Source: an uncultured Bacilli bacterium | Lineage (GTDB): Bacteria > Bacillota_I > Bacilli_A > RF39 > UBA660 | Assembly (NCBI GenBank): GCA_947627835.1 | Contig: CANQXM010000002.1 | Span: forward strand, 1-38,123 | Direction: 5' to 3' | DNA: 38,123 bases | In this document: positions 16,884 through 36,947 of the stretch, piece by piece | How positions within the stretch are numbered: position 1 is the first letter of the stretch | How the letters are laid out: every line of letters starts with the position of its first letter | The notes under the pieces: generated by a model | The model's database searches: none | What the model was told of the DNA's origin: nothing | Seen by the model: the letters and a program-made list of their open reading frames with translations, nothing else | Position numbers and translations under genes: made by a program

Positions 16884-18077
16884 TTACTCGTTTTTTAAAA
16901 TGAATTCTTTTAATTTATTTATTTGGCGATTTAGTAAAACACATAGCCGATAGATTCGTTTATCAGAATATCCAGTTAAATGTTGGTATTGATGTAATAG
17001 ATCATCAAACCATTCAACAATTCCATCTAATTTGCTTATTTCAATTCTTTTTGGGTTTTTAACTACTTTTATGATTTCATCAAATGGTTTTACTTCATAA
17101 AATAATCTTCCACTTCCAGAAATGTGTACTTCATCTTCATCATAATATTCGATATTTAAACTTTGACCGTTATCAAATATTGGTGCTACATCTAGCCATT
17201 TTAAGGTATTCACATCTCTTATAATTCCAAAGTTATTTAAATGGCGATCTTCATTCATAATCAGAAAATCTAGAATATACATATTCTCCATTTTTTCTCT
17301 TGCATTTTCTATTCCATTATCTTCTAATTTTTTAATATATTCTTCATAATCTTCTAAACTATCATGTTTTTTCATATCATTTTTAATTTGATAGCAAGTA
17401 ATTAGTTCTGTATCTTTCGTTATAAAGCAGGGGCATTTTGATACTACGATATCTTTATAGGTATCAATGGTATATTCTACATGATTAAATCCGAGTCTTT
17501 TACAAATTTCACTTGCTAATGCTTCATTAAATGGTTGCAGCGTCTCATTTTTATAACCACCTTTTAATAGATATCTTATTCCGTTTTCTATTATCCAAGC
17601 TTTTTTAAGCATTCCATCGGTAGTATTATTTGGAGTTTTTAATGAAGTTTCTCTCGTAATTGTTTTACTATTTACTGATAAAGATGCTTCCATAAACTCT
17701 GCATAATCAAAATCATTGTCAAAGAAATTAATATCATCATAGGAAACGTCACTATCATAAGGTTTTAACCAATATTGATCGGATAAGGATAGTCCAAAAG
17801 CTTTATCTAAAAGTTCATAGGGTGCTATTATATTTAAACGATGTAATAATAAATCTAATTTATCACGCCATGAAGGAATTCCTCTTCCTTTAAACCAATC
17901 ACTTAAATTTTTTCGAAAGGGAGTGTCATTGATATCATCTTCCATATAAAAACTTTTTAAAATATAAGGTGCATAATTGATGTCTGTTACTTCGTAGATT
18001 CTATCGAAAAATTTTGATGTTTCATTATATTCAGCAGTCAATACTTCTTTATTTTTATTCATTAGTATACATTTCAT
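16884..18077 (-). CDS. HipA-like Ser/Thr kinase domain protein (solo, no HipB-like neighbour)
   Basis: The catalytic-loop-like motif LIMNEDRHLNNFGIIRD resembles the HipA_C (D/N)xDxHxxN pattern. AAGGAAG RBS. An extended -10 TGGTATAAT lies at 18115-18107. Confidence 0.65.
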   Translation of the reverse strand: MKCILMNKNKEVLTAEYNETSKFFDRIYEVTDINYAPYILKSFYMEDDINDTPFRKNLSDWFKGRGIPSWRDKLDLLLHRLNIIAPYELLDKAFGLSLSDQYWLKPYDSDVSYDDINFFDNDFDYAEFMEASLSVNSKTITRETSLKTPNNTTDGMLKKAWIIENGIRYLLKGGYKNETLQPFNEALASEICKRLGFNHVEYTIDTYKDIVVSKCPCFITKDTELITCYQIKNDMKKHDSLEDYEEYIKKLEDNGIENAREKMENMYILDFLIMNEDRHLNNFGIIRDVNTLKWLDVAPIFDNGQSLNIEYYDEDEVHISGSGRLFYEVKPFDEIIKVVKNPKRIEISKLDGIVEWFDDLLHQYQHLTGYSDKRIYRLCVLLNRQINKLKEFILKNE

Positions 18078-18316: not shown

Positions 18317-18346
18317 TTTACGAATTTGTCTTATCCGTGATACAAT
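18317..18346 (+). promoter_or_regulatory. Promoter of the 314-aa orphan gene
   Basis: TTTACG (18317-18322), an 18-nt spacer, then TG-A-TACAAT (extended -10; hexamer at 18341-18346). GAGGTGA RBS at 18353-18359 and ATG at 18364. Confidence 0.55.
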
Positions 18347-18363
18347 GAAATTGAGGTGATATT

Positions 18364-19308
18364 ATGGCTATTCAGGATCCAAAACCGGATGAAATTGTTC
18401 CTTCAAAAACTCAGAAAGGAAAGCAAGAAGGATTTACTATTCTTTTTACTGAGGCATATGCTATGCCAAGTAATACTTATGTGGAAGATGATTCTCATAC
18501 GTTTACGGTTTCTCTCGATCGAAGTCTTTGTTGGAAGAATTTTGGACGATGTTGGTTTGATGAAGGAGAGCGGGAGTTGATTGCCAAACAAACTGCTTAT
18601 AAGGAGTGGTTACTGGAGTTTTGTCCGCCGAAAGACTATGCTAAGTGTGGAATTATGTTTGGAATAAATGGAGTTTGCCATACAACTTCTAACCGAGAAT
18701 TATTGATTGGAGAAGATAACGTAGATGTTCGTCTTGCGCCGAAAAATTTTGTGACGGTTTCTATTTTTGGTAAATATGGGTTTGGTTTAGATATTTTAAA
18801 ACAACTCATTACAGATTCTTATCATCGGGCAAGTTTACAAGTACCGATGGCAGAAGATGTTTTACAAATGGTACTGGATCGTATTGATCAAACTTTAGAT
18901 GATGAAGTTTTGGCTTGGAGACAACTGATGAGTGAATATTTCATGTTACCAATTGAAACCATCTTACAAAAGCATCCGGATGCCGTGGCAAATTTACGGA
19001 TGATGATTACTCATCTTTTACAAAACCGTGAACTCATTTATGAAGAATTTCGCAAACGACAAGTTGTTCAACCGACCTATGAAAAAAATATTTATATGTT
19101 ACTCAGTCAAAGCGTTTCTAATTATTTGGACTTTTTGGTTCAAGCAGGCTATATTGATAATACGATGCGTACCAATGCCTTACAAGCAATGATCCTATTT
19201 TTTAATCGTTTGTTTCGCGTCGTTGATGGACAAGTACAAGCCGTTACCCAAATGGGAGGACTTGATCAAAATCTTGTTAAAAAATTACAACGAACGGGTA
19301 AAATTTAA
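18364..19308 (+). CDS. Hypothetical protein, no recognisable family; compositionally atypical
   Basis: A 314-aa ORF with a good RBS, its own promoter and a strong terminator. My hand count gives about 38-42% G+C in sampled lines (18601-18660, 19021-19080), against about 23-32% in neighbouring genes. It uses CCG/CGA/GCC codons that look uncommon in the neighbouring genes I read (not counted). Confidence 0.75.
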   Translation: MAIQDPKPDEIVPSKTQKGKQEGFTILFTEAYAMPSNTYVEDDSHTFTVSLDRSLCWKNFGRCWFDEGERELIAKQTAYKEWLLEFCPPKDYAKCGIMFGINGVCHTTSNRELLIGEDNVDVRLAPKNFVTVSIFGKYGFGLDILKQLITDSYHRASLQVPMAEDVLQMVLDRIDQTLDDEVLAWRQLMSEYFMLPIETILQKHPDAVANLRMMITHLLQNRELIYEEFRKRQVVQPTYEKNIYMLLSQSVSNYLDFLVQAGYIDNTMRTNALQAMILFFNRLFRVVDGQVQAVTQMGGLDQNLVKKLQRTGKI

Positions 19309-19335
19309 CTCTAAGTTTTCTTAGAGTTTTTTAAT
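19307..19335 (+). terminator. Strong rho-independent terminator after the orphan gene
   Basis: AACTCTAAG (19307-19315) / CTTAGAGTT (19320-19328), a 9-bp stem with a TTTT loop, followed by a T-run. Confidence 0.8.
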
Positions 19336-19374: not shown

Positions 19375-19403
19375 TTGACTTTTTATTAAAATGGGTTCAA
19401 AAT
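19375..19403 (+). promoter_or_regulatory. Promoter candidate for ATPase A
   Basis: TTGACT (19375-19380), a 17-nt spacer, then CAAAAT (19398-19403), 50 nt upstream of the ATG at 19453. The -10 is weak. Confidence 0.35.
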
Positions 19404-23224: not shown

Positions 23225-24010
23225 TTATGGTCTTTCAGTTATGATATTTAAATCAATTAAAATGATGGAAACCAGTGATAACATTTTATAGTATTGATGA
23301 TTTGAAAAGAAGTTTTCTTCATATTCAAATATTTTCATATTGGTTTTCGAAAAGTTGGATGGATCATAATCTTTGATTCCTATTTTCATCAATTTATTAT
23401 GAAGCATATTAACGCTTTTTAATAAAGTATGTGTATTTATTTCACTAATTCTATATCCGTTTTTCGAAAGGTATTTTTTTAAATCTTTGATTTGTAAATT
23501 TTCTGTATTTTCTTTAAAATTTTCTAAAATATAACTTTGAATACATGGGTAACTTAGCAATAATAAGCCATTGATACCATCATTATTTTCATAAGCATTT
23601 CCTAATGATTTTAATAATTTCTTTGTAATATCGGCACGATTAGATATATAATCTCGGTCCCATAAAAAATATATTGGTACATTTTTTATATCTATATGAT
23701 ATTTTTCATACATCATTTTAAATATCTGATTTTGGTAATCCACATCTTTCACAATATTCTGAATATTAGAATTCCTTAAATTGATTACCAATATTTGTGA
23801 GTTTTCATTTCCTCTCATTACATATTGATCATAGTCATTTATTTTTACTCTATTTCTCTTTTTTTCAATGTATCGATAGTGAAGTACATTTCGAAAAATT
23901 TGTTTTAATATTTCACATTCATCATTTTCGCCTTCAACAAATATTACTACTGTTCCAATGTTTCTGCGCAGATTAATCTTTAAAGTGCTTGTTGTATTTT
24001 GGCATTCCAT
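23225..24010 (-). CDS. RloB/Toprim-like partner protein, module B
   Basis: VVIFVEGENDECEILKQIF (Toprim Glu block), PIYFLWDRDYIS (DxD block) and LLLSYPCIQSYILENF (the SNPCFELW-like block of RloB-like proteins). I prefer the ATG at 24010 (GGAG 6 nt upstream) over the one at 24022. It overlaps ATPase B by 38 nt. Confidence 0.65.
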   Translation of the reverse strand: MECQNTTSTLKINLRRNIGTVVIFVEGENDECEILKQIFRNVLHYRYIEKKRNRVKINDYDQYVMRGNENSQILVINLRNSNIQNIVKDVDYQNQIFKMMYEKYHIDIKNVPIYFLWDRDYISNRADITKKLLKSLGNAYENNDGINGLLLLSYPCIQSYILENFKENTENLQIKDLKKYLSKNGYRISEINTHTLLKSVNMLHNKLMKIGIKDYDPSNFSKTNMKIFEYEENFFSNHQYYKMLSLVSIILIDLNIITERP

Positions 24011-25127
24011 TGAAAACTCCATTTAAATACATTTTTTCTGTATTTTGAGATTCTCTTGGCATTTCTTCCGAGAATCTTTTGAGTACGCTTCCCTTTTTTG
24101 GGTTAAAAGTAACAGAATAAATTTGGTCTGGACGAAGGATGGTGTTATTTAATAAATTGGTTGAATGGGAAGCTAAGAAAATTTGTGAGTTTTTCGCATA
24201 GTGAAAAAAGAATTTCAAAAAGCTTTCTTCTAGTTCATTATGAAACCCACTACTAAATTCATCAACGACGATGATACAATCATTTTTGATAGCATGTAAG
24301 AAAGAAGGAATTAATTGCATTAATGTAACATTTCCAGTAGATTCAAATATTTCAGGAATATAAATATTTGTTCCATTTTTATTAAAAGAAACATATTTTT
24401 TGTTATTATCTATTACTACTTGAATTTTTCCTTTTAAATCTATCTTCTCTTTTCCATAAGAAATGGTTTGTGGGTAATTAATTTGTTCTAGGAATTTATT
24501 TATCATGCTTACATCATGTTCATTTAAATAATCATGAATTAACAATGATTCGTCTGTATAGCAATGGGCTTTACGTGTATAACAATTAATATAGACTGAG
24601 TTTTTCATATAATCAAACCACTTATTTAGTAACTTATCATCATAGAAATGAGTATCAAAATAAATTCTTCTTAAAAAGGGTAGTTTTTCAGAAACATTAT
24701 CAAAATTTTTTTCTTTCTCAAAAGTAAATTGGGCATTTTTTCCAAGTCTCTTTAAAATATTTTGATCATTGATATAGAGTTCTTCTGCAACAATTTTTGT
24801 TAAATCGAGCTCAATATAATAGCGAATAGTTTGATTATCTATTAAAAAAGTATACTCAAATTCATAAGTTTCTTTTTCACTATAAAAACTTTTTTTAAAT
24901 AAAAAATCGTTTTCCTTATTATCAAAGAGAATATCTAATAGAAAACGAATGGCTTCCAGTATTTTGGTTTTTCCTGAGGCGTTTTCTCCGACGAAAAGAC
25001 ATCCTTTTAAGATTCGATTGGCTCCAACATTTTCACTTTCTAAAAATTTATAGTTTGTAGCTGAAAAATCAATTTCAGTCTTATTTAAAAATGTTGTATA
25101 ATTGTTGATCATAATTTTTTTTAGCAT
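23973..25127 (-). CDS. ABC/OLD-type (AAA_21-like) ATPase, module B
   Basis: Walker A GENASGKT. Signature-like FESTGNVT. Walker B CIIVVDEFSSG. H-loop LASHSTNLL. C-terminal YLNGVFNGMP. Confidence 0.85.
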   Translation of the reverse strand: MLKKIMINNYTTFLNKTEIDFSATNYKFLESENVGANRILKGCLFVGENASGKTKILEAIRFLLDILFDNKENDFLFKKSFYSEKETYEFEYTFLIDNQTIRYYIELDLTKIVAEELYINDQNILKRLGKNAQFTFEKEKNFDNVSEKLPFLRRIYFDTHFYDDKLLNKWFDYMKNSVYINCYTRKAHCYTDESLLIHDYLNEHDVSMINKFLEQINYPQTISYGKEKIDLKGKIQVVIDNNKKYVSFNKNGTNIYIPEIFESTGNVTLMQLIPSFLHAIKNDCIIVVDEFSSGFHNELEESFLKFFFHYAKNSQIFLASHSTNLLNNTILRPDQIYSVTFNPKKGSVLKRFSEEMPRESQNTEKMYLNGVFNGMPKYNKHFKD

Positions 25128-25150
25128 AAAACATTTCCCCTTTTGATACT

Positions 25151-25179
25151 ATTATGCATCAAATGTAAAAAAATTACAA
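25151..25179 (-). promoter_or_regulatory. Promoter candidate for ATPase B
   Basis: On the minus strand, TTGTAA (25179-25174), a 17-nt spacer, then CATAAT (25156-25151), about 25 nt upstream of the ATG at 25127. A second, near-consensus TTGACT-16-TATAAT lies at 25239-25212, upstream of the hairpin. Confidence 0.35.
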
Positions 25180-25208
25180 TCAATTTTATTTAATTGTAAT
25201 TTTTTTAC
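25165..25208. terminator. 16-bp AT-rich perfect hairpin at the end of the polysaccharide operon
   Basis: GTAAAAAAATTACAAT (25165-25180) / ATTGTAATTTTTTTAC (25193-25208) with a 12-nt loop. It lies 34 nt downstream of the FrhB-like stop codon, and the T7 run lies inside the 3' arm on either strand. Confidence 0.45.
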
Positions 25209-25241
25209 ACTATTATAATATTTCTTTAGTAAAAGTCAACT

Positions 25242-26366
25242 TTATTTGAATAATCTTTTGATTCTTGCTTTCCAATTCCTTTTCTTTTTGCTATATTTTT
25301 TAGACAACTTTGTTATATCCAATTTGGAAAAATCTTGAAAAAATTTTTCTCTTTTTTTGGTAAATTCTGCTGATTTTATTAAAGAGCTATTCCCTTTTGT
25401 TATTTCCTCTAACTGACATTCATAAGAAATAATTTGCTCTTTGATTTCATGAAATAATTCTTCCCCTTTTTTGGTATTGATAATGACTGCAGAAGATCCG
25501 TTATCATTATATAATTTTTCATAATGTTCTTTTACTCCCCAGAAATCTCCCAGTGTAATATCAGAATATTTATTTCCTAATTTAAAATGACATTGATAAC
25601 AACTTTCTCTTAAAGCTACATCGGATAAAAATAATTTCATATAATCGTTATCTTTTGCTAGTTGTGTGAAGCGTTTCTTATTTTCAAAGGTCGCTTCATT
25701 TGAGTAAGTTATCCACCCCGTAGACTTATCTCGAAAATTATAAGTTTTTAACTTGGCATTTTCTCTTATTTCTAATTCTTTTATATATTCTTCAAATAAC
25801 TTAGAACTTGGTACACCATGACAAATCAAATCCACACAAATTAAATTTTCATCTTCCTTTTTTAAAAAGGATTTTAAGCCAGCTACTTGGCAAGGGGTTC
25901 CAACAAAGAGAATCTTTTTATTTTTTAGATTTTCTTTTATATAACGAAAGCTATTTCCTAAATCACTTTGCAGATATTTGCTTCCTTTTAACTTCGTCAA
26001 ATCTTCTTTTTTCGTTATAGCGATATGTTTTAATTTTTGATCTAGCAACGCGGCACCAATCACAATTCCTTCGTGATTTAAAATATAGTTTGCAATGGCC
26101 GAAAAGATTCCGCCGGAAGAAGAAGTTAAAATTTCTTGTTCCTTTTTATTATAAGCAAGATAGCATTGGTTTCTGGCTTTATTTTCTTTTGTATTTAATA
26201 CCGGGCATGTCTTTTGACATAAACCACAATTGATGCATTTTTCTTGATCAATTTCTGGATGAAGAAATCCTTCTTTATCTTTTTTCATTTGAATGGCATT
26301 TTTCGGACAAATGCTATAGCACGCAGTACACCCAGTACAATTTTCTTTTTCAATCACTTTTTCCAT
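25242..26366 (-). CDS. FrhB-like (coenzyme F420 hydrogenase/dehydrogenase beta subunit family) protein with an N-terminal 2x[4Fe-4S] ferredoxin domain
   Basis: CTGCTACYSICP and CINCGLCQKTCP ferredoxin motifs. The remainder (GTPCQVAGLK, LICHGVPS) matches the FrhB-type domain that commonly accompanies polysaccharide pyruvyl transferases. Confidence 0.75.
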   Translation of the reverse strand: MEKVIEKENCTGCTACYSICPKNAIQMKKDKEGFLHPEIDQEKCINCGLCQKTCPVLNTKENKARNQCYLAYNKKEQEILTSSSGGIFSAIANYILNHEGIVIGAALLDQKLKHIAITKKEDLTKLKGSKYLQSDLGNSFRYIKENLKNKKILFVGTPCQVAGLKSFLKKEDENLICVDLICHGVPSSKLFEEYIKELEIRENAKLKTYNFRDKSTGWITYSNEATFENKKRFTQLAKDNDYMKLFLSDVALRESCYQCHFKLGNKYSDITLGDFWGVKEHYEKLYNDNGSSAVIINTKKGEELFHEIKEQIISYECQLEEITKGNSSLIKSAEFTKKREKFFQDFSKLDITKLSKKYSKKKRNWKARIKRLFK

Positions 26367-26367
26367 A

Positions 26368-27615
26368 TTAATCTAGCCATCCATTATTTTTATAAGTTCC
26401 TTTATTTATCTGATATTGCTTTAACCATGATTTTGGCACTATTTTTTTTATCAAGTTTTTAAAACTTTGTTTCGTTGGAATAAATGAAAGAATATAAGCC
26501 ATCGCTGGAACTGTTTTTCCGTCCTTTTTGTAATAAGATAATATTTCGCCATACTCTTCTTTTTTTTCAAAGTTTTTCTTATCATGATCTCTAGCCCATT
26601 TTAATGCTCCAGCAAGGAATTTTACTTTATTTTTTTGATAATGTTTCAAATCAAATACATTGGCGTAGTGATCTAACTCATTAATTGCATCTAATGCTAA
26701 CATCGTTCGAATACACTTTTCGCAATTACTGCAATTGGTTGCTTTCTCATGTCTTACACATACATTTAACCAATTATATGTTTCATTATGATGAGCGATA
26801 AACTCTACTTTTTCCATTCTGGTTGCTTCAATACCGCTACTATAAACCGTTGTATTTTGATTACTCAAACATTGAACATTTAAAATGTCATAATCAGCTG
26901 TAGATTCAGCAGTAATCGCGGTATCATTAAAGTTTGCTCCACTAGAAAAATAATATATTTTAAATAGTTTTTGTAATGCTAAAACACAACCCAGTGTTCG
27001 AAAACTATGAGTAGCAAAGTGACTCATTTTAATAAACTCATTCATATTTGAATCAACAGTTACTAATTTTAAATTCTGTTCTTTGCAAAATCCAGAGACA
27101 TATTCTAATCTTTTATGAAAAAGTTCTCTTGCTTCTTTTCCTCCATTATCTCCATGTGAACCGGCATTGAAAAAGGTTAAATGTGTGATATTGTACTGAT
27201 TATCTAATTGATTTCGATGTTTTAAAAATGTATAAAAAGAATCTACTCCACATGATATACCGGTTCCAACTGCTTTGGGATGAAACTCTACATTATTTAC
27301 TTCTGTTTTGATTTGAATATTTCTTTTATGTAAATTATTACTCAATAATGGAATTAAATAAGTTGTTAATTGATAATATAATTGTGAACTAATAGCACCT
27401 TTTACTTCAACATCAAGCTCATGTTTTATTAAATAAGAAAGGATTGCTACTAAGAATGCGTCTGAATTTTCGGCACATAAGTAATCTTTGTACTCTTTTT
27501 CAACTTCAAACCATAAGTCATAAGTTTTCTTTTCTTCATAAATTAACGTTGCTATTAATCGATATTTTCCTTCTACTTGTTCGATTCTTGGTTTTTCTAT
27601 TATTACTTTATTCAT
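26368..27615 (-). CDS. Hypothetical protein with a PP-loop-like motif and a QueC-like Cys cluster
   Basis: AVGTGISCGVDSFYTF resembles the SGGxDS PP-loop of adenine-nucleotide alpha-hydrolases. NCSNCEKCIRT resembles the C-terminal CxxCxxCxxR zinc motif of QueC-type enzymes. AGAGGTG RBS. The functional call is speculative. Confidence 0.55.
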   Translation of the reverse strand: MNKVIIEKPRIEQVEGKYRLIATLIYEEKKTYDLWFEVEKEYKDYLCAENSDAFLVAILSYLIKHELDVEVKGAISSQLYYQLTTYLIPLLSNNLHKRNIQIKTEVNNVEFHPKAVGTGISCGVDSFYTFLKHRNQLDNQYNITHLTFFNAGSHGDNGGKEARELFHKRLEYVSGFCKEQNLKLVTVDSNMNEFIKMSHFATHSFRTLGCVLALQKLFKIYYFSSGANFNDTAITAESTADYDILNVQCLSNQNTTVYSSGIEATRMEKVEFIAHHNETYNWLNVCVRHEKATNCSNCEKCIRTMLALDAINELDHYANVFDLKHYQKNKVKFLAGALKWARDHDKKNFEKKEEYGEILSYYKKDGKTVPAMAYILSFIPTKQSFKNLIKKIVPKSWLKQYQINKGTYKNNGWLD

Positions 27616-27627
27616 TTTACACCTCTA

Positions 27628-28848
27628 TTATATTTCATATTCTAATTGATTATTGATTTCTTTCTTGTTTTGATTCAAAAAACGATTATATATTTTCAAG
27701 TTATCTTTTATTAATTTTTCTTTTTCTTCTTTATCTGTTTCATTTTGAATCAAATCATATAAAGAATAGACTTTTACATATCCGTCTTTTTCTTCTTTAC
27801 TTTTTAAAATTGTGAATGAATATTTATCAATCTTTTTTTCTTCCTTATCAATATAGGCATGTAGTAATATTGAATACTCACTCATGTATTCCTTTTTATA
27901 ATATTTGGTCCGGTATGAAGTAATCATATTTCCTAAAGAATAGGATATCAATTGATTTTCTTTATGAACTAACTTTTGAACTACATGAGGATGCGTTCCT
28001 ACAATTAATGGGACATTTGTAGCGCTAATTTGCTTTAGAATGGTCTCTGTAAAAGATCCAGGATTTTCGTTAAACTGACCTCCAGAATGAAGCATGAAAA
28101 TGGTTATATCACTTTTCTTTTGGGCTTCTTTGATTTCTTCTTCACATTTTCTTACTATATCCGAATTTATTATCCATTCTCCTGTATGTAATTCATCTAC
28201 AACAATTGAATTTTCTATAGGTACAAAATGGATTGGGTAATTGATTAATTCTTTCACTATATTTTTTATATATTTCTTATAAAGATTTTTGTAAAAAAAA
28301 CTTTGATTATAGCATTGCCATTCCTTATTTGAATTTTGTTCTTTTATTAAATTGATTTGCTCCCGATTTTTTTCATTTATTTTATAGTGATTATATCCAT
28401 AATTTGTACCATATGTATATCCTAAAAAAGCAATCTTGATACCATTCAGTTCTACTATTTTATATTTCTTTTTTTCATTTTTTAGAGTAGTTCCTACGTA
28501 TTCCATATTCCACTTTTTGATGTTTTTCATCGTTTGATTTAAGCCATTGATTCCTCGATCTAAGCAATGATTGTTTGATGTCATTAGCATTTTAAAATTA
28601 GCTTTGTTTAGTGCTTTTAAAAAATTTTCAGGCGTATTAAAAGAATACCATTCGTTTGTGTAACCTCCCTTTTTACAAACGGGAGTTTCTAGATTCCCTA
28701 CCACATAATCAGAATTTTGTAAATATTTTAAAATGGGTGTGAAAATTTCTTCAAAATTGTATGAGTGTTTTTTTAACGTTTTTATTAATGGCCATTCACA
28801 GATTAAATCACCAGTGAAACTAATTTTTATTCTGTTTTCGTCTTTCAT
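27628..28848 (-). CDS. CapA/PGA_cap-family metallophosphatase-like protein
   Basis: ISFTGDL..., GNLETPV, NNHCLDRG and GTHPHVVQ are the characteristic CapA-family blocks. Confidence 0.75.
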   Translation of the reverse strand: MKDENRIKISFTGDLICEWPLIKTLKKHSYNFEEIFTPILKYLQNSDYVVGNLETPVCKKGGYTNEWYSFNTPENFLKALNKANFKMLMTSNNHCLDRGINGLNQTMKNIKKWNMEYVGTTLKNEKKKYKIVELNGIKIAFLGYTYGTNYGYNHYKINEKNREQINLIKEQNSNKEWQCYNQSFFYKNLYKKYIKNIVKELINYPIHFVPIENSIVVDELHTGEWIINSDIVRKCEEEIKEAQKKSDITIFMLHSGGQFNENPGSFTETILKQISATNVPLIVGTHPHVVQKLVHKENQLISYSLGNMITSYRTKYYKKEYMSEYSILLHAYIDKEEKKIDKYSFTILKSKEEKDGYVKVYSLYDLIQNETDKEEKEKLIKDNLKIYNRFLNQNKKEINNQLEYEI

Positions 28849-30371
28849 ATTTTTCTTCCTATCAATTTATTTTTAAATTCTCTAATCATTTCTTTTTCAT
28901 AATCTGTTAAGTAGAAACGGGAAATGCTTAAATAAGTTATCGTGTAAATGAGTAACCAGATGAATAAAATGAACCATGAAGTGATTTGAATGTGAAAGAG
29001 ATTTATCACGCCGAAAAATAATAATGTTTCGGTAATTAAAGCTATAAAGATATTTAAAGTTTCTTTGGTAAATCTTATCATATCTAAATGTAAGGATTTA
29101 TGATAATAAATGTTTTTAATTACTATATTTCCTATGAATAAAGAAATTGCTGTACCAATAGCTGCACCAAGACCTCCATACATTTTAATTAAGGGAATAC
29201 TTACGATAATATTTAAAATAGAGGTAATGATTAGTACTTTTGGTAAGAATTGATGTTTATTTTTAGCTTGGGTAATGCTAATGACTGAATTTTTGATTAA
29301 AGAATCTATCATTGGAATCATTAATGCTAATCCAATATAATAGGCATCTTGATATTCTTGACCAACCCACAGAATAATAAAGTTTTTACCAAAAACAATA
29401 AAGCCAGTTAAGATTAGTCCAACGACCATTAATTGAATTCTTCCCGTACGAATCAGTACATCTGTAAATTCTTGATCCGTTGCTTTGTTTTCAACCATCT
29501 TAGTCATTTTTGGAAGCAAGACTCCACTGATTGCTGTTGAAAAAGAAATATATACTTGATTGATATGAGATGCGATGGCATATATGGATACTGCTGCTGC
29601 TCCACTAAGACTGCCAATCAAGAAATTATCAATGCTCCAATTTACTTTGTCAACAACCGTATTTATAAATATCCAAAAGGAAAAAGAAAAGATTGCGAAT
29701 AGTAGTTTAAAATCTATTTTTCCAAATTTAATTTTCGTTTTAATTTTATATTTACAATATAGGGCACTAAATAATAAACTTAAAATATTTAAAACGGTAA
29801 TCACAATTGCCAAAGCAACCGACTTAAATCCAAAAGAAAGTAAAATAAGCATCGTTACTGGTTGTAAGATGATGGTTACAATATTCACCAATTTGGCAAA
29901 GATAAACTTTTCGTATGCCGTTACAATGGATGAAAATACACTTAATGGAAAAGTCACTGCTAAATTAAAAGTTAAAATTAACATTAGTTTTTTAGCTGTA
30001 ACTAATTCATAAGCATTCATTGTGGCACCAAATAAATTTTCGACATTTAGATATATTGTAAATCCAAATAAAGCTACTAGTAATCCTATGATGGTGTATA
30101 CAATGATAAACATTCCATACAAGTTATGCTCTTTTTCAAATTCTTTTTTAACTCGATATCGATTTGAATAAACTACTAAAGCACTTGCAAATCCAAAATC
30201 TAAAATGGTTAATGTAGATATAATAGAAGATACCATCGAATATAGTCCATACTCACTTTGTCCTAGACTTCTTGTTAAAATCGGTGTGTAAAATAAAGTG
30301 ATTACTAAGTTTAACATGATTACTACATAAGATAGTAAGGCGCCTATTTTTCTTTGGTTTTCATCATTCAT
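28845..30371 (-). CDS. Oligosaccharide flippase (Wzx-type, MOP superfamily)
   Basis: 508 aa, hydrophobic throughout with roughly 12-14 predicted TM segments. The N-terminal ...LTRSLGQSEYGLYSMV is typical of the polysaccharide biosynthesis protein family. 4-nt overlap with the next gene. Confidence 0.8.
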   Translation of the reverse strand: MNDENQRKIGALLSYVVIMLNLVITLFYTPILTRSLGQSEYGLYSMVSSIISTLTILDFGFASALVVYSNRYRVKKEFEKEHNLYGMFIIVYTIIGLLVALFGFTIYLNVENLFGATMNAYELVTAKKLMLILTFNLAVTFPLSVFSSIVTAYEKFIFAKLVNIVTIILQPVTMLILLSFGFKSVALAIVITVLNILSLLFSALYCKYKIKTKIKFGKIDFKLLFAIFSFSFWIFINTVVDKVNWSIDNFLIGSLSGAAAVSIYAIASHINQVYISFSTAISGVLLPKMTKMVENKATDQEFTDVLIRTGRIQLMVVGLILTGFIVFGKNFIILWVGQEYQDAYYIGLALMIPMIDSLIKNSVISITQAKNKHQFLPKVLIITSILNIIVSIPLIKMYGGLGAAIGTAISLFIGNIVIKNIYYHKSLHLDMIRFTKETLNIFIALITETLLFFGVINLFHIQITSWFILFIWLLIYTITYLSISRFYLTDYEKEMIREFKNKLIGRKI

Positions 30372-30386
30372 TCAAAGTCATCCTTT

Positions 30387-31673
30387 CTATTGATTTTTCT
30401 TCTTTCTTGTAAATGCATAGGTGTAAAAAATAAATAAAAGTGAAATTAAAAATGTTTCATCATACATGGTAAAGATTCGAGCATAGATGCTAAATATCAA
30501 AAGACATATTGCTATAAAAAAGACATGAAATTTACTTAAATTTTTAAAGTAATAACGATAAAAAGTTGTATACAAATAAATTAGTATGAAAACGTATATT
30601 AGTCCTCCATTATATACCCTTGAAGTCATTTCATTTAATCCGAAGTGTTTAGGAGCACTGGGTTCATCAAATAAACGGATAGATCCGATTCCTTTTCCTA
30701 TATATAACCCATTGCCATATTCTAAAGCATATTTTAAAAGTTCAATTCTTTCTTCTGTAACTTTTCCAGTATCTGTAATACTACCGGTAATGTTTTCTTT
30801 AGTTCTTAAAATATGTTCTTCAATAATTTTTTCATTGACAAAAGTATGTACTTTTTCGTTTCCTACATAAAGAGCAATTCCTGCAGTTAACATGATACAT
30901 GCTCCTAATAAAAGCATTTTCATTTTCTTCTTATTAATTTTTATTTTTTTGTCTTCTTTTTTCCATAAATCATTTAATATCATTGGAATTAAAAAGAAAA
31001 CTAATAGAAAATAATACATTCGATTATCATTGAATGCTGATACATATATTGAAGAAATAATAATAAATACCATCATAACTCGTGCAGTCATTCTAGTCTT
31101 TTTATTTTGATGATAAAAATAGCAATAATTTAAAAGTAAACATGCTAAAGTGAGAAAACTTAAACGATGCGTTCCATTGGTTCCTAGTAATCCGCAAATT
31201 TGATCTGTGTAAAAATTATTGTTTGAAAAATTACGAATTAAAAAGCCAGGTTGATAAAATTGGATAATGGTGACAATCGAATTAATAATGTAATATGCAT
31301 TTAAAATAATAAATGATGGTTTTAAAATAATTTTTTCAAAGCGTTTTTGATCTCTTGCAAAAAAGCGAAAGCAAAGAACAATGGTTAATGGTAAAAAGCC
31401 ATATGAGATTACTTCTGTAATCCAGTAGGGATGATTTTTGGTGAGTAGCATGTTGATGGCAATATATCCCAAATATAATAAGACTGCTCCCAGTTCTTTT
31501 TTATTAAAAGTTAGATTACGAAGATTTAAAAGAGCAAGAAGAATACAAAATGCAAAACTAATATATCGAAGCATATTGGTATTATTGTACCATCTTAAGA
31601 ATAAAACACAGAAAGCCATTAGATAGAAAGCCACAAAATATACTAAACTCATTATGTTTATTTTTTTGTTCAT
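30387..31673 (-). CDS. Polytopic membrane protein, probable O-antigen/EPS polymerase (Wzy-like)
   Basis: 428 aa with about 10 or more TM segments and one larger hydrophilic loop (aa ~270-330), positioned between the pyruvyl transferase and Wzx genes. No strict motif; the call rests on context. Confidence 0.55.
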   Translation of the reverse strand: MNKKINIMSLVYFVAFYLMAFCVLFLRWYNNTNMLRYISFAFCILLALLNLRNLTFNKKELGAVLLYLGYIAINMLLTKNHPYWITEVISYGFLPLTIVLCFRFFARDQKRFEKIILKPSFIILNAYYIINSIVTIIQFYQPGFLIRNFSNNNFYTDQICGLLGTNGTHRLSFLTLACLLLNYCYFYHQNKKTRMTARVMMVFIIISSIYVSAFNDNRMYYFLLVFFLIPMILNDLWKKEDKKIKINKKKMKMLLLGACIMLTAGIALYVGNEKVHTFVNEKIIEEHILRTKENITGSITDTGKVTEERIELLKYALEYGNGLYIGKGIGSIRLFDEPSAPKHFGLNEMTSRVYNGGLIYVFILIYLYTTFYRYYFKNLSKFHVFFIAICLLIFSIYARIFTMYDETFLISLLFIFYTYAFTRKKKNQ

Positions 31674-32722
31674 AGTATCTTCTCCATTAATGCATTCATC
31701 AGATATTTTTGAGATTTTTTTTGCTCTTTTTGGATAATCTTATTGCTATTTGTAAAATCACAAGTTAATGATTTTTCGGATAATTTTCTTTTAAATTCTC
31801 TATCTTCTAACTTTAATAATTTTAATAGTTGTTCTATTCTTGAATACATGTTTTTATTTTGATCATTTCTTTTATAAACGATAAATGGCACGTTAAATAT
31901 CGTAGCAAAGACAGCCGAATGAAAAGAATCCGTACAAATTAACATAGCATTTTTTTCTAAGTATAAAAACTCTTCTGGACTGCTTTGATAATATTTGCTT
32001 TTCTTATCTAATAAATTAATAATGGTTGCATTTTGCTTTTTAGCAAATTCTTTTAATTCTACTGTTTTTTGTTCATCTAAATTCCCTAGAAAATAAGTTA
32101 AAATATATTTGGAAGGTACTTGAGATGGTTTTTTCATTACTTTTAACCATTCTTCTTTTGTTAATAATAAAGTTGGATCTACTAATACTTCTACTTTCTT
32201 TATACCAAGATTTTTTATTAGATTGGCTCCTGCTTCTTCTCTTACAGATAAGTCTTTAAAGCGATTTAAGTATTTTTTATATTCTTCTTTTTTATTATTT
32301 TCTAACTTGCTAATTCCAAAACTAGCTGCATAAGAAATATTTTTTTCGCGAGGCGAGAATTTCAATAGTGTTAACTCTCTATTGACACTTGGAAAATTAT
32401 AATTCCAAACTTGATCGCTACCCACAATAAAGTAATCATAATCTTTTTCTAATTGTTTTAAATTATGATATTTTTTTGTGGTAATGTTTTTTTGTGAGAA
32501 ATCTTTGATTCGGTTATATCTTTTTCGTTCAGCTGCTGGTGCAAGCATTCTTTTTAGCCATTTTTTTATATTTGTTTTTTTGTTTTCTTGGTTGGTAAAT
32601 TCAATCGTTTCTGCAATGTAGTATTCATTCATCTTGGTTATGAATGTTTGCAATGCATAGTTTTGAAGTCGATTTCCATAATTGACATAACCATTTAAAG
32701 TAATAATTCCTACTTTTTTCAT
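31670..32722 (-). CDS. Polysaccharide pyruvyl transferase family protein
   Basis: N-terminal KKVGIITLNGYVNYGNRLQNYALQ and C-terminal ICTDSFHSAVFATIFNVPFIV are typical of PS_pyruv_trans proteins. Confidence 0.8.
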   Translation of the reverse strand: MKKVGIITLNGYVNYGNRLQNYALQTFITKMNEYYIAETIEFTNQENKKTNIKKWLKRMLAPAAERKRYNRIKDFSQKNITTKKYHNLKQLEKDYDYFIVGSDQVWNYNFPSVNRELTLLKFSPREKNISYAASFGISKLENNKKEEYKKYLNRFKDLSVREEAGANLIKNLGIKKVEVLVDPTLLLTKEEWLKVMKKPSQVPSKYILTYFLGNLDEQKTVELKEFAKKQNATIINLLDKKSKYYQSSPEEFLYLEKNAMLICTDSFHSAVFATIFNVPFIVYKRNDQNKNMYSRIEQLLKLLKLEDREFKRKLSEKSLTCDFTNSNKIIQKEQKKSQKYLMNALMEKIL

Positions 32723-32731
32723 AAAGTGCCT

Positions 32732-33673
32732 CTACTTTCTTAGATAACTATATAAATTTGGACTTAATGTAAAAATCATATGTTTTATTTTGACTTTTAA
32801 AGGTAATTTGATGGTTATCTTTCTTTGATAATTTTTAAATTTATTGATTAACTCCTGTTTTTGATTTTCATCTAAAATTTTTTTTAATATTTTATAGCAG
32901 TGAGTAATGGAATCCATCGTTTTTACCATAGCTTGTTGATAATGGGTTTCATCCTTTTTCTTATGAAACTCTTCTACCCAATGTTCAAAAGCGGTAATCT
33001 CATCTAATCTATTGATATTGATTGTAGACATAATACTATTTTCATGAATCATGCGATTATATAAAGGCAGATTTAGATATGAAAATTTTTGACATTTTGA
33101 TAGCAGGTCATAAATTATATAAGTATCTTCATTGATGGTATTGACTGGATAGTGGCAGGTTTTTATTATTTCTGATTTATATAATTTGTTAATTGGATTT
33201 CCTAGTCTTCTTTCACTAAATAGATAATCAAACATTTCATTTCCAGATGCAACAAATGATTTTCTTTCTTTCGCAATTAAATGTTTCTCTCCGGTTTTTG
33301 TGTTGTGCTCCATAATGTCACACATTGAAAAATCCGCATTATTTTCAATTAAATTTTGGTAAAGATATTGGCAATAATTTTTATCGTAAAAATCATCACT
33401 ATCACAAAAACACAAATACTTTCCAGTTGCTAAAGATAAGCCAACATTTCTGGTGTATGCAATTCCTTTATTTGTTTGATGATGAATTTTGATTCTTTTA
33501 TCTTTCTTTTGATATTTTTGACATATCTTTAAGGAATCATCTGATGATCCATCATCAATTAATAAGATTTCTAAATTTTGATATGTTTGGTTTAAAATGC
33601 TTGTAATACATTTATCTAAATATTTTTCACGATTATATATTGTAACAATTACACTAATTAAATCTTGTTCCAT
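32732..33673 (-). CDS. Family 2 glycosyltransferase
   Basis: ISVIVTIYNREKYLDKCITSILNQTYQNLEILLIDDGSSDDS and CDSDD. Confidence 0.9.
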   Translation of the reverse strand: MEQDLISVIVTIYNREKYLDKCITSILNQTYQNLEILLIDDGSSDDSLKICQKYQKKDKRIKIHHQTNKGIAYTRNVGLSLATGKYLCFCDSDDFYDKNYCQYLYQNLIENNADFSMCDIMEHNTKTGEKHLIAKERKSFVASGNEMFDYLFSERRLGNPINKLYKSEIIKTCHYPVNTINEDTYIIYDLLSKCQKFSYLNLPLYNRMIHENSIMSTININRLDEITAFEHWVEEFHKKKDETHYQQAMVKTMDSITHCYKILKKILDENQKQELINKFKNYQRKITIKLPLKVKIKHMIFTLSPNLYSYLRK

Positions 33674-33679
33674 TTATGC

Positions 33680-34852
33680 TCACTCCTGTAATACTTCTTC
33701 GTATAATTTCATGATGTTTTTTGCATTATTCTCATCTGAGAAATCCTTCGCACGTTCATGAGCATTATTTTCCATTTGATTTTTTTCTTCTATTGACATA
33801 TTGTATATTTTAATCAGAATATCTGCTAAACTTTGATAGTTTCCATATTCATATATAAAGCCCGAATTGTCTGTTACAATTTCTTTACATGCTCCTTGGT
33901 TTGGAACAATCGTAATTAATTTATTTGTCATGTATTCTACGATAACTCTACCAAAAGCTTCAGATTTTGAGCACATAATTCCTACGTTATATTTATCCAT
34001 AATTTGTTCTACGTCGTTTAAGTAATCATTTAGTCGAACATTTTGAAGATTGTATTTTCTTATTTTTTCTAAAAGTAATGCTTTATAACTAGCGTCTGAT
34101 CCACCATAGAAGTCTAAAGTTATTTTTTCTCTTATATTTTGTGGTACTAAATTTAATGCTTCGATAATTTCTAATTGTCCTTTATTTTTTCTAATTGCTC
34201 CTAAAAACAAAATATTTAGTTTATCTGTATTTTTTAATTTTGCCTTTGGATTTTGTTTTACTCCGTTATAAATCATTTTCATTTTACTTTCATCAAGTCC
34301 TCGATTTATGAAATGCGATTTTATAACATTTGAAATTGCAATAAAATAATTGGTATGTTGATTCAAATATTCAATATAATTCTTTTTAAAATAAAAACAA
34401 TTGAAATCAATATCTCCAAACTCTCGCAAATGCATAATGTGGGGAATATGATATTTTTGGCTTAACATAGCACCAAAGTCGTCTCTATTTATATTTGTAT
34501 GAATTAATGCAATTTCTTTCATATTTATTTTTTTGTCTATTTTATATAAGGCTATTTTATTACATAAAATGTAACGAATTTTTAAAGCAGGAAATAATAC
34601 TTTTTTCATAATTTTTTTTAATTTGGTTGATCCTCGTCCGGTTGCAAAGGGCTTATAGTTTACCTTTAGATATTTTATATTATTTTTATCACACATTTGT
34701 GTTAAATATCCTTCTTTATTTACTAAGATAATTGGATCATATTGGTTTTTTATATTGCTAACTAAATAAAAAAGAGACTTCGTTGCTCCACCGCTTTGGA
34801 TTTCATTTGCAATAAACAAAATTTTTGCTTTTTTCATCTTATTCACCTTCAT
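33680..34852 (-). CDS. Family 4 (GT-B, Glycos_transf_1) glycosyltransferase
   Basis: EX7E motif SEAFGRVIVEYM and N-terminal IQSGGATKS. The ATG at 34837 (MKKAKILFIAN) has the better RBS (AAGGTGA) and may be the true start. Confidence 0.85.
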   Translation of the reverse strand: MKVNKMKKAKILFIANEIQSGGATKSLFYLVSNIKNQYDPIILVNKEGYLTQMCDKNNIKYLKVNYKPFATGRGSTKLKKIMKKVLFPALKIRYILCNKIALYKIDKKINMKEIALIHTNINRDDFGAMLSQKYHIPHIMHLREFGDIDFNCFYFKKNYIEYLNQHTNYFIAISNVIKSHFINRGLDESKMKMIYNGVKQNPKAKLKNTDKLNILFLGAIRKNKGQLEIIEALNLVPQNIREKITLDFYGGSDASYKALLLEKIRKYNLQNVRLNDYLNDVEQIMDKYNVGIMCSKSEAFGRVIVEYMTNKLITIVPNQGACKEIVTDNSGFIYEYGNYQSLADILIKIYNMSIEEKNQMENNAHERAKDFSDENNAKNIMKLYEEVLQE

Positions 34853-36705
34853 TGTTTTACATTAAATTTTGATTTAATATATATTTTTTTTAAAAGTTTG
34901 TAATAGGGAAATTTTATTTTAAATAATCTTTTTATGAATCCAGCTTTCCAACCACATATTCCAAAATCATGATATAATTTTTTAGGATGAAAAACATATT
35001 TGTATAAAGGATCTGGCTTAGCAAAATATTGCTCTTTACCATCCAAAAAATGAATATTTCCAAATAGTTTTATATCCGTTAAATTGGGCATAATTCCTAA
35101 TTTTTTAATGCCATAAAATGCAGTATCAGCATTAATGGAAAGATTTATATGAAAATTTTTAATAAAATCGAGAGCACCTTGTTGCATACTTAAAAACTTT
35201 TGAGAAACATCACTAGAATATTCATAAGTAGCTAAAATGGGAGTATTATCTTTGTATTTTATCGTAGTTCCATGATTTGCTAAGAAGAAACTTTCAAATA
35301 AATTGATAAACATTTGAACATTTATAAAATTTTGATTTTGATAATCAAATAAATATGCTTTTTGCTTTTGGCCTCTGTCTACATATTTTTTTGCTTCTGG
35401 GCTTTGGCATATATAATAGCCGATTATATTTGTTTTTTTCATAAGTGTTTGCAAAGCATTTTGCATTGTTCCGGCCCATCCAATATCAGAAATTGCCAAT
35501 TTCCCATGAAAATCTTGACTCTCTAAATAAGATATTAAGTTTTTTTCCTCTTTTTTTGCATTATCAATAATATCCATTTTGATTTCATCAAACAAATTTT
35601 GGAGGTTATTCGCTTCTTTTATATTTGTATCTTTTTGTACATTATATTTTTTTAAAAGTTTTATATAATCATTCACATCTAAACCAACGTTCATAAAGAA
35701 ACTATCTAAATCAACAATTTTCCGCATTTTACAAACATCAAAAACATCGGATATGGTCTGGATATTTTTAAGTAGACTAACTCTTGTACTTCTCCTTGAT
35801 ACATATAAATATTTTGATTCAATATCTGTATCATTAATTAAATCAAATGCTTTTTTTAACAAAGCACCTTCTCGAGATAAAAAATACACTTTTTTGATGT
35901 TTTCTTTTTTTAGTTCCGTCTTTAGCCATTTTGAATACCCAAGCAATAAAATGCCTAATATTTCATATCCAATTTGGTAGTATATGTCTCTAGATGGTAA
36001 ATTATTATTCATAAAATTTTTAATAATATTGTCTTCTAAACATTCATATTTAAAGTCATTATAATATCTTAATCGATTAATCTTTTTGGGAATAAGAATT
36101 GATTGAATACCATATCTTTTGGGATTGATATAATCAGCTCTTTTAGAATCACCAATATGAAGTAAATTACTCGGTTTTATTTTTAATTGTTCTAATATAT
36201 ATGGATAGATTTTTCCATGATGTTTATTTAACTTTAGGTCATTTGAAAGAAATAAATAATCATAGTCAATTTTTGCATTTTTTAATATTTTTTTAATGGT
36301 TTCTTTTTCAAGGTACATATCCGAAGTAATAATTATTTTTTTATTTTTTTCTTTGGCATATTGGTAAATTGAATAAAAATTAATATTTTGCTGGCATAAT
36401 TCAAGTTCACTATGAATTTCCAATTTTTTTAACTCTTCTTTATTAGATAAATTTAAAAAACTATAAATATCATTTATATCTGGTTCTCTGTGAATAGATG
36501 CATCTCTTGCTTGTTGTTCTGCTTTTATTCTAAGCTCTTTAAAACTTTTTAATTGAACGTGATTTTTATGATTATATTTCTGCTCTACAAAATCAAACAA
36601 ATCAGTAGGCTTTTCAAGATTCCTTTTTACAAGCGTGTCAAAAATATCAAAAGAAATATATTCACAATGATCTATTTTCTTTTTTATTTTCTTTTCATTA
36701 TACAT
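34849..36705 (-). CDS. Large HAD-superfamily domain protein of unknown role in polysaccharide synthesis
   Basis: HAD motif I ISFDIFDTLVKRN and motif IV-like HIGDSKRADY, followed by about 400 aa with no recognised domain. Start set to the ATG at 36705 behind a GGTAGGTGAA RBS. Confidence 0.7.
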   Translation of the reverse strand: MYNEKKIKKKIDHCEYISFDIFDTLVKRNLEKPTDLFDFVEQKYNHKNHVQLKSFKELRIKAEQQARDASIHREPDINDIYSFLNLSNKEELKKLEIHSELELCQQNINFYSIYQYAKEKNKKIIITSDMYLEKETIKKILKNAKIDYDYLFLSNDLKLNKHHGKIYPYILEQLKIKPSNLLHIGDSKRADYINPKRYGIQSILIPKKINRLRYYNDFKYECLEDNIIKNFMNNNLPSRDIYYQIGYEILGILLLGYSKWLKTELKKENIKKVYFLSREGALLKKAFDLINDTDIESKYLYVSRRSTRVSLLKNIQTISDVFDVCKMRKIVDLDSFFMNVGLDVNDYIKLLKKYNVQKDTNIKEANNLQNLFDEIKMDIIDNAKKEEKNLISYLESQDFHGKLAISDIGWAGTMQNALQTLMKKTNIIGYYICQSPEAKKYVDRGQKQKAYLFDYQNQNFINVQMFINLFESFFLANHGTTIKYKDNTPILATYEYSSDVSQKFLSMQQGALDFIKNFHINLSINADTAFYGIKKLGIMPNLTDIKLFGNIHFLDGKEQYFAKPDPLYKYVFHPKKLYHDFGICGWKAGFIKRLFKIKFPYYKLLKKIYIKSKFNVKQ

Positions 36706-36722
36706 ACATTCACCTACCAATC

Positions 36723-36941: not shown

Positions 36942-36947
36942 CTATAT

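Follow-up and report, generated by a model that had tools for sequence, protein, structure and literature searches.

The gene orf314 lies in a 38,123-nucleotide stretch of DNA (hereafter the window) from an uncultured Bacilli bacterium (GenBank assembly GCA_947627835.1, contig CANQXM010000002.1) and encodes a protein of 314 amino acids. Here we report that orf314 belongs to a real, undescribed and unannotated protein family and that, as read from gene architectures, its members elsewhere are physically linked to alpha/beta-hydrolases of the lipase type, some being fused to them in one chain and others having them as the product of the adjacent same-strand gene. By the same kind of evidence, orf314 and its rabbit-gut clade are solo copies from which the hydrolase is absent. 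We tentatively favor, at somewhat less than an even chance, a joint reading in which the family protein is a thiol-dependent enzyme that neutralizes or controls its lipase partner, with solo orf314 as an orphan protective gene.

A word-indexed search with orf314 recovered 16 close homologues, one of them 98% identical and the others 43–59% identical, none of which carried a Pfam domain or a name. An exhaustive profile search extended the family to 114 representative clusters at E ≤ 1e-3 (34 of them at E ≤ 1e-30), and a profile of distant members added 45 proteins, every named one of which was termed “hypothetical”; about 180 family sequences were recovered in total. These homologues contradict the original prediction, made from the sequence alone, that orf314 is an orphan. 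No meaningful match to orf314 was found in Pfam, NCBIfam, PHROGs, or PADLOC, the last giving only PDC-S19 at E = 0.005 over 65 residues, and the best E obtained against the PDB, whether with the sequence or with a profile, was 0.11. PADLOC likewise gave no meaningful match for four distant family members and three partner hydrolases, and no weak family recurred when 74 aligned stand-alone members were compared with Pfam at E ≤ 10. The look-up of the representative clusters gave no names or accessions, and a region-restricted homologue search from one fusion protein, P0038, matched P0038 only. No description of the family was found in full-text literature on TslA-type toxins, Mbeg1/DUF2974, lipase defence effectors, and orphan immunity genes, or on toxin–antitoxin links of DUF2235, DUF676, and DUF900. 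The close clade came almost wholly from rabbit-gut (“Lapin”) metagenome-assembled genomes (MAGs), labelled both Bacilli and Clostridia, and orf314 was carried by 2 of the 11 genomes belonging to its genus and by none of the 398 others sampled from the phylum.

The coupling to lipases was most direct in 17 representative clusters, which consist of proteins of 545–777 amino acids with the orf314-type domain at the C-terminus. All 10 of the long relatives scanned matched Lipase_3 in the N-terminal part at E ≤ 0.01, six of them above the Pfam cut-off and some also being Mbeg1-like, and the nucleophile motif GHS[LK]GG was kept in 16 of the 17. The fusions occupied at least three separate places in the tree (P0019, P0038, and a larger clade), indicating at the level of the tree that lipase fusion arose at least three times. 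One other family member is fused to a jacalin lectin instead. P0038 sits on an integrative mobile element with a relaxase, MobC, ArdC-N, YodL, and several recombinases. On the same element, the P0038 gene overlaps by 14 nucleotides (nt) a gene for a 1010-residue surface protein with Flg_new repeats (locus L048, 9001–13873).

Adjacent hydrolase genes were found in a neighbourhood sample of the distant clade that comprised 43 metagenome loci and four look-ups. Lipase_3 neighbours occurred at L058, L065, L070, L072, L073, L083, and L099; the three scanned with Pfam (L065, L072, and L083) gave E values of 2e-26 to 3e-28, that of L058 is taken from its annotation, and those of L070, L073, and L099 rest on our own lipase hidden Markov model. 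Neighbour clustering defined a GHSLGS group at eight loci (L071, L076–L078, L081, L082, L084, and L092), where the hydrolases showed weak matches to DUF676, PGAP1, LCAT, or Lipase_3, and to which L094 and L096 were added by motif only and L103 by a weak LCAT match. Furthermore, a DUF900 protein was encoded next door in L093 (with a weak match in L067/68), an Abhydrolase_6 protein next door in L075, and an AHSFG hydrolase, identified by eye only, in L063, while in both L080 and L085 a single small gene separated the family member from a Tle1-like phospholipase gene (E about 1e-45). The partner hydrolases thus named come from at least five families. Where at least 900 bp were available on both flanks, 10 of 13 distant-clade loci had a hydrolase neighbour. 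Neighbour and family member invariably shared a strand, the distance between them ranged from −28 to +254 nt, and the family member was usually upstream. No signal peptide or trafficking domain was recognized by eye in the N-termini of the partner hydrolases, and no secretion genes were seen nearby. In the solo clade, no hydrolase was encoded within 3 kb of the family member. Close pairing of two genes in one operon, one of them for an enzyme that may be toxic, combined with solo copies of the partner, is the arrangement of a toxin–antitoxin-like pair; solo copies of this family are common, and its hydrolase-linked loci are usually situated in mobile elements or in the company of defence genes.

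Two of the paired loci are compact islands (L085, 485–7142, and L078, 1659–6091) made up of an AAA_15/21 ATPase with a small partner, the family member, and a lipase-type hydrolase. In L078 the DUF676-like gene is directly downstream; in L085 the Tle1-like gene follows after one small open reading frame (ORF), and then comes a gene for an HD/dGTPase-like protein.

We modelled the fold of orf314 by AlphaFold with 74 sequences, obtaining a predicted local distance difference test score (pLDDT) of 95.0 and a predicted template modelling score of 0.89, with all five models at 94 or above in pLDDT; this model superseded an earlier run with 16 sequences (pLDDT 76, no fold match). The model comprises a disordered tail (residues 1–22), strands at 26–36, 43–50, and 71–79, short helices, and a helix at 105–114 that starts exactly at Cys105, followed by a helix, the G136-K-Y-G139 loop, another helix, and a long-helix bundle extending to residue 311, in agreement with the helical C-terminal half proposed earlier. 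Foldseek searches of the PDB and BFVD gave no match at E < 0.001, and among the 50 matches listed for either database none had a TM-score above 0.24 on query length. The predicted fold is of high confidence and without counterpart among the solved and viral-predicted structures searched. The homology and structure searches that the original prediction had called for yielded a family and a confident fold, yet neither a named family nor a structural match.

The mean column identity among the 74 stand-alone sequences was 22%. G136 was invariant, and H45, W57, G61, W82, G96, G103, C105, N110, R111, L113, G139, E181, and R222 were at least 90% conserved; the family signature can be written as G-[VTI]-C-[HQ]-x-x-A-N-R-[IL]-L. 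The two patches singled out in the original prediction, CWKNFGRCWFDEGE and GINGVCHTTSN, are both present in the orf314 translation. The most conserved part of the family is the non-helical half, which carries the catalytic-looking residues. A C-x5-R signature also occurs (C105-HTTSN-R111), with C105, N110, and R111 kept in at least 86–99% of 98 sequences. Membership of the Cys-dependent phosphatases, namely protein tyrosine phosphatases (PTP), dual-specificity phosphatases, and low-molecular-weight PTP, was nevertheless rejected, because the motif lies wholly inside helix 105–114 rather than in a strand–P-loop–helix arrangement and no phosphatase fold was detected: no PTP-like or rhodanese-like structure was present among the 50 Foldseek matches listed (all E ≥ 0.8), and no Pfam phosphatase matched the 74 family members.

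All 16 solo and all 18 paired members had both His45 and Cys105, as did only 5 of the 17 fused members, whereas N110, R111, G136, G139, W185, and R222 were retained in the fused proteins. Both residues were found in 164 of 181 sequences and neither in 14; one sequence had the His only, and two were N-terminally truncated. The joint loss concerned 12 fusions and P0084, a family member outside that set. Both the sequence and the predicted secondary structure fit a pattern in which the Cys opens a helix and the His lies on a beta-strand, and the pair co-varies. We read His45 and Cys105 as a functional, probably catalytic dyad, which would no longer have been needed after covalent joining of the domain to the lipase.

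Within the window, orf314 is, at the level of consensus signals, a separately transcribed and self-contained cassette. The extended −10 promoter, GAGGTGA ribosome-binding site, 314-residue ORF, and 9-bp terminator described in the original prediction were all found in the sequence (Table 1). The terminator hairpin directly follows the stop codon and separates orf314 from an AbiL-like ATPase/RloB pair (module A), and a consensus scan found a second promoter-like site (TTGACT, 17 nt, CAAAAT; 19375–19403) 5' of ATPase A. The maximum Kyte–Doolittle value over 19 residues of the orf314 protein was only 0.93, so that no transmembrane segment is indicated, as had been stated earlier; no signal peptide was found either, and the protein is predicted to be soluble and cytoplasmic. 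The gene is present as a single copy in the genome. Its counterpart in a sister strain differed by 17.5 synonymous and 7.5 non-synonymous changes, and the resulting ratio of non-synonymous to synonymous rates (dN/dS = 0.107) therefore places orf314 under purifying selection.

Table 1. Features of the orf314 cassette and of the encoded protein, in window coordinates
Feature	Position	Strand	Description and basis
orf314 coding sequence	18364-19308	+	314 amino acids, 945 nt; ORF list; solo member of an undescribed family
Predicted sigma-70-type promoter	18317..18346	+	-35 TTTACG at 18317-18322, 18-nt spacer, extended -10 TGaTACAAT; consensus scan
Ribosome-binding site GAGGTGA	18353-18359	+	4 nt 5' of ATG; read from sequence
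Predicted intrinsic terminator	19307-19328 (feature row 19307..19335)	+	9-bp stem with 3 G-C pairs, 4-nt loop, T-run
Conserved N-terminal alpha/beta half, residues 25-140	18436..18783	+	alignments and AlphaFold model
His45 codon	18496..18498	+	located in strand beta-2; no exception among 16 solo and 18 paired members
Signature G-V-C105-H-T-T-S-N110-R111-E-L	18670..18702	+	Cys105 caps the N-terminus of helix 105-114
G136-K-Y-G139 loop	18769..18780	+	glycine-rich, between two helices; G136 invariant in 74 sequences
C-terminal helical half, residues 142-311	18787..19296	+	conserved E181, W185, R222; alignment and model

The original prediction had described orf314 as compositionally foreign, with a G+C content of 38–42%. 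The measured value was 36.4%, compared with 28.4% for the window, 24.6–34.7% for neighbouring genes, and 31.5% for the genome (1.13 Mb in 118 contigs, 89% complete). A windowed calculation confirmed the local contrast, placing orf314 within the top 0.65% of the 945-bp windows of the window, but the window itself is AT-rich relative to the genome. Among 637 genome ORFs of at least 200 amino acids, orf314 ranked at the 94th percentile in G+C (z = 1.55), at the 96th and 72nd percentiles in G+C at the first (GC1) and second (GC2) codon positions, and at only the 78th percentile at the third (GC3; z = 0.81), so that it does not stand out as foreign against the genome. The excess lies mainly in GC1 and therefore reflects amino-acid composition. 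The island and polysaccharide genes around orf314 had unusually low GC3 (17–21%, against a genome mean of 23.3%), and it is these AT-rich neighbours, not orf314, that are compositionally atypical. The contrast noted earlier is thus mostly explained by AT-rich neighbours and amino-acid composition. Homologues in other hosts had G+C contents of 25–40% and tracked their host flanks, with a mean of 3 points above them, and orf314 looks composition-adapted to its host. For the proposed horizontal acquisition, the evidence was divided: the patchy distribution, the occurrence in rabbit-gut MAGs of both Bacilli and Clostridia, and the frequent position beside insertion sequence (IS) elements, integrases, or genes of integrative and conjugative elements (ICEs) support it, whereas the host-adapted composition does not. 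For the window, the practical result is that orf314 should not be annotated as compositionally foreign.

The position of orf314, 145 nt upstream of ATPase A, had suggested that module A might have it as a third component. In PADLOC, ATPase A matches AbiLi (8.9e-43), and the conflict genes of the window near orf314 are two AbiL-like pairs and one gene for a HipA-like/PDC-M03A protein. The arrangement of orf314 and module A is shared by the 98%-identical sister strain (L019, which is genome G006). However, when we examined whether such a pair is always adjacent, as the original prediction had proposed to do, the AbiL-like ATPase/RloB pair adjoined a family member in no context other than the window and the sister strain, among more than 15 close and more than 40 distant contexts. 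Close homologues instead lay between ribosomal-protein operons beside an IS200-type Y1 transposase (L001), after a BceRS/ABC system and before a helicase (L005), beside a DUF433 gene and a polysaccharide locus (L008), after cotJABC and before a tyrosine recombinase and a polysaccharide locus (L010), within an ICE-like region with a coupling protein, a resolvase, and a sortase (L014), and beside an AAA_14 ATPase, a sigma/anti-sigma pair, and AbiE (L015), with additional loci in yet other, differing contexts. Since the pair is adjacent only here and in the sister strain, the third-component idea is not supported; neither do the consensus signals suggest co-transcription, as both the terminator and the promoter-like site intervene. 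The alternative offered in the same prediction, that orf314 is an independent single-gene unit or an unrelated passenger, agrees with its own promoter and terminator, its monocistronic state throughout the clade, and its variable neighbours. These features of sequence and gene order support orf314 as an independent unit in a variable island, which for the window means that its annotation should keep it apart from the AbiL-like module.

The island itself differs between relatives. In the sister strain, a 351-residue Fic-domain gene with the motif HPFYDGNGRTGR (L019, 5771–6826, minus strand) lies between the HipA-like gene and orf314; it is absent from the window, where the junction maps to about 18195. 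Module B, the second AbiL-like pair (window 23248–25005), is mostly missing in the sister strain, where only fragments matching 23971–24060 and 25005–25223 were found. The HipA-like gene (window 16884–18077, minus strand; PADLOC PDC-M03A, 9e-21) occurs at 77–84% nucleotide identity in three other genomes of the same taxonomic family (G014, G019, and G021) without the other island genes and appears to move independently. In other relatives, the HipA-like gene and an orf314 homologue were each found without the rest of the island. A search of the relatives for an empty site gave no syntenic one, and each island gene had its own distribution.

Elsewhere in the family, PADLOC and Pfam identified AAA_15/21 ATPase pairs and the HD/dGTPase-like protein among the neighbours, and OLD-like, AbiEii-like, E1-like, and Mrr_N neighbours were read by eye from the sequences. 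The weakest family member, from Xanthomonas, has Dnd, SNase/Imm11, and an X-Tfe effector nearby, and a Mu/TniB-type transposon adjoins another member. Polysaccharide genes (Bac_transf, Wzy, MBOAT, or ALGX) lay next to or near homologues at L008/9, L010–13, L029, L032, and L103, and a CapD-like neighbour was read by eye at L023. Family members are found recurrently at the 5' edge of polysaccharide loci; that of the window (25242–38021) starts about 6 kb away from orf314. The same 305-residue tyrosine recombinase was encoded between the homologue and Bac_transf in related MAGs at L010 (9168–10085, minus strand) and L032 (8203–9120, plus strand), in opposite orientation, and may mark an invertible element controlling the capsule locus. 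One MAG (Lapin-007__bin29) contained three diverged family copies (L030, L031, and L036), each cut by a contig end, which suggests repeated or strain-variable regions. A tandem duplicate was found at L032 (5948–7918), where the upstream copy is split (102 and 168 residues) and the downstream copy of 318 residues is intact.

In the reading that we favor, the His/Cys pair would make the orf314 protein a thiol-dependent enzyme, the family protein would act like an antitoxin or immunity protein, possibly by enzymatic means, to neutralize or control a lipase that attacks membranes and is potentially toxic to its own cell, and solo orf314 would be a protective gene retained as an orphan within a variable island. 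The toxin–antitoxin-like operon geometry, the orphans and paralogues, the mobile or defence setting, and the fused single-chain versions are, as patterns of gene organization, in favor of it. The antitoxin- or immunity-like features include the many solo copies, the three diverged copies in one MAG, the tandem duplicate with a broken copy, and neighbours that are integrase, IS, ICE, or defence genes.

Several observations weigh against this reading. No Lipase_3 gene above the Pfam cut-off was found in the window genome at its 89% completeness, so that a solo copy would have no obvious target as a regulator and, as an immunity gene, would imply attackers that are so far hypothetical. The 12 losses of the His/Cys pair among fusions form one contiguous tree group and P0084 is a second, independent case, so that the co-variation rests on about two events, and the putative dyad is read from residue order and predicted secondary structure. 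Binding-type antitoxins and immunity proteins rarely carry an invariant set of Cys, His, Arg, and Glu residues, nor would one binding-type family be expected to neutralize five hydrolase families; for these reasons, the protective reading needs an enzymatic mechanism, which is speculative. Finally, the known immunity proteins to secreted lipase toxins are extracytoplasmic (PMC13560087), whereas the orf314 protein is predicted to be cytoplasmic. A more specific version, which we hold to be rather unlikely, is that the family is a new class of enzymatic neutralizer of lipase toxins, a cytoplasmic Cys–His enzyme of new fold. Such a neutralizer would repair or pre-empt lipase damage, for example by thioester acyl transfer, or would covalently modify the lipase, which would explain both the partners from at least five hydrolase families and the solo copies, as broad-spectrum protective genes in gut bacteria.

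Comparison with known systems gave partial likenesses. Type II and type VII toxin–antitoxin modules and fused toxin–antitoxins such as CapRel are presumably the closest systems. They resemble the family in the tightly spaced same-strand pair with one potentially self-toxic enzyme, here a lipase, in the fused single-chain versions, in the frequent solo non-toxic partner, and in the mobile-element or defence-island setting; in contrast, the family lacks a DNA-binding domain, and, at 260–320 residues, its partner protein greatly exceeds typical antitoxins in size and has an invariant His/Cys pair. No description of an alpha/beta-hydrolase lipase as the toxin of a toxin–antitoxin system was found in the literature searched. 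The lipase effector–immunity systems of contact-dependent antagonism that were compared were Tle/Tli of type VI secretion systems (T6SS), TslA/TilA and TslM/TilM of type VII secretion systems (T7SS), Tox-ABhydrolase with Imm66 or Imm69, and orphan-immunity islands. These share with the family the hydrolase families involved (Lipase_3/Mbeg1-like and Tle1-like) and the paralogous and orphan gut copies, sometimes beside tyrosine recombinases, but differ in that their known immunity proteins are extracytoplasmic (PMC13560087), while orf314 has neither signal peptide nor transmembrane segment and its family's partner hydrolases have no recognizable trafficking domains. Imm66, Imm69, and SUKH are the immunity families listed for alpha/beta-hydrolase toxins (PMC3482391), and neither these nor Tli or DUF4123 matched any of the 74 members at Pfam E ≤ 10. 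The order and placement of His45 (strand) and Cys105 (helix N-cap), with their strict conservation and joint loss, recall papain-like and NlpC/P60–LRAT thiol enzymes (acyltransferases in the latter case), but Foldseek gave no fold match in the PDB, and there was no Pfam match in the 74 members. Homology to NlpC/P60 is not supported by hhalign either, a thin profile of three NlpC/P60 sequences giving a probability of 0.2%. With AbiL (AbiLi/AbiLii), the only likeness of orf314 is physical proximity; it has its own promoter and terminator and is not a recurrent neighbour.

Other explanations attribute a different role to the same domain. It might be the sensor or regulatory subunit of a lipase-based abortive-infection defence, whose conserved pocket binds a trigger or ligand, upon which the hydrolase destroys the membrane, solo copies being remnants, decoys, or partners of an unlinked hydrolase. 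The paired and fused layouts, with an N-terminal effector and a C-terminal family domain, mirror many defence proteins; the loci lie among AAA_15/21 ATPase pairs and an HD/dGTPase-like gene and, by eye, OLD-like, AbiEii-like, E1-like, and Mrr_N genes; and the fused clade keeps Asn–Arg, GKYG, and Arg222 while dropping His/Cys, as expected if binding rather than catalysis matters. Yet the partner effector is always a lipase-type hydrolase and never a nuclease, TIR, or transmembrane effector, the entire rabbit-gut clade is solo yet under purifying selection, and neither the family nor the partner hydrolases are in PADLOC; on balance, we regard a sensor as improbable, though worth keeping in mind. 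Somewhat less probable again is that orf314 is itself the effector, a Cys–His acyltransferase, thioesterase, amidase, or peptidase that forms a single-gene conflict or defence system, acting alone in the solo clade and with a lipase elsewhere. The polar constellation, with its Cys at a helix N-cap and His on a strand, does look catalytic, a fusion to jacalin lectin exists, and the extreme C-terminus that the domain occupies in fusions is the usual site of toxin domains in polymorphic toxins (PMC3482391). Against this, a constitutively promoted cytoplasmic toxin without a visible antidote would harm its host, no conserved small partner ORF lies beside the solo copies, and there is no similarity to a known thiol-enzyme fold.

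The remaining explanations start from the genomic surroundings. An accessory enzyme of envelope lipid or polysaccharide metabolism, which may act on lipid-linked or acylated intermediates, would account for the repeated position at the 5' edge of polysaccharide-synthesis loci, including that of the window, and lipases and basic Arg/Lys pockets would fit lipid or phosphate substrates. We nonetheless find it distinctly unlikely: many contexts lack a polysaccharide locus (ribosomal operons, the BceRS system, ICE, transposon), a family found in 0 of 398 sampled phylum genomes is much too uncommon to supply a pathway step, and the co-location may be incidental, since recombination hot spots include capsule loci as well as defence islands. 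A role of orf314 in module A as its third, separately transcribed component, whether sensor, trigger mimic, or immunity factor, appears highly improbable. The 145-nt distance, the conservation of the arrangement in the sister strain, and the AAA_15/21 ATPase pairs beside the family member at two distant loci would be in keeping with it; the intervening terminator and promoter-like site are not, no other homologue adjoins an AbiL-like pair, and at the two distant loci (L078 and L085) the family member has its own hydrolase partner, and their ATPase pairs were not significantly similar to module A by BLASTP (E of 0.007 at best, over 45 residues). The domain could also serve secretion, either as the LXG-like targeting domain of “reverse” T7SS lipase toxins or as a T6SS-style adaptor or chaperone, but of all the explanations we give this one the least credence. 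Adaptor genes typically lie just upstream of effector genes. The order of an N-terminal lipase and a partly helical C-terminal domain resembles that of the Staphylococcus aureus toxins TslA and TslM (PMC13560087, PMC10730906). However, the best WXG100 match in the genome scored 17 bits against a Pfam cut-off of 27.3, no LXG or DUF4123 match was found in the 74 members at E ≤ 10, the most conserved part of the family is the non-helical half, and the partner hydrolases are small, with no signal or trafficking domain seen by eye and no secretion genes nearby. Since reverse lipase toxins of the T7SS have a WXG100/Lap partner, a T7SS, and an LXG-like helical C-terminal domain (PMC13560087), and neither WXG100 nor Lipase_3 above the cut-off nor an LXG match was found here, membership of that class (TslA, Tsl2) was rejected.

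Returning to a thiol-dependent partner of lipases, the family offers a confident unmatched fold together with the candidate catalytic pair His45/Cys105, and no description of a cytoplasmic partner common to several lipase families was found in the literature. What would be new here, as judged from gene organization and the predicted model, is a conflict-type lipase partner built on an unrecognized fold. Lipase effectors are central to bacterial antagonism and abortive infection. If the lipase link is functional, the family would define an uncatalogued two-gene or fused conflict module, consisting of a lipase-type hydrolase and a thiol protein of new fold, that is spread among Gram-positive gut bacteria and metagenome contigs of 43–63% GC.

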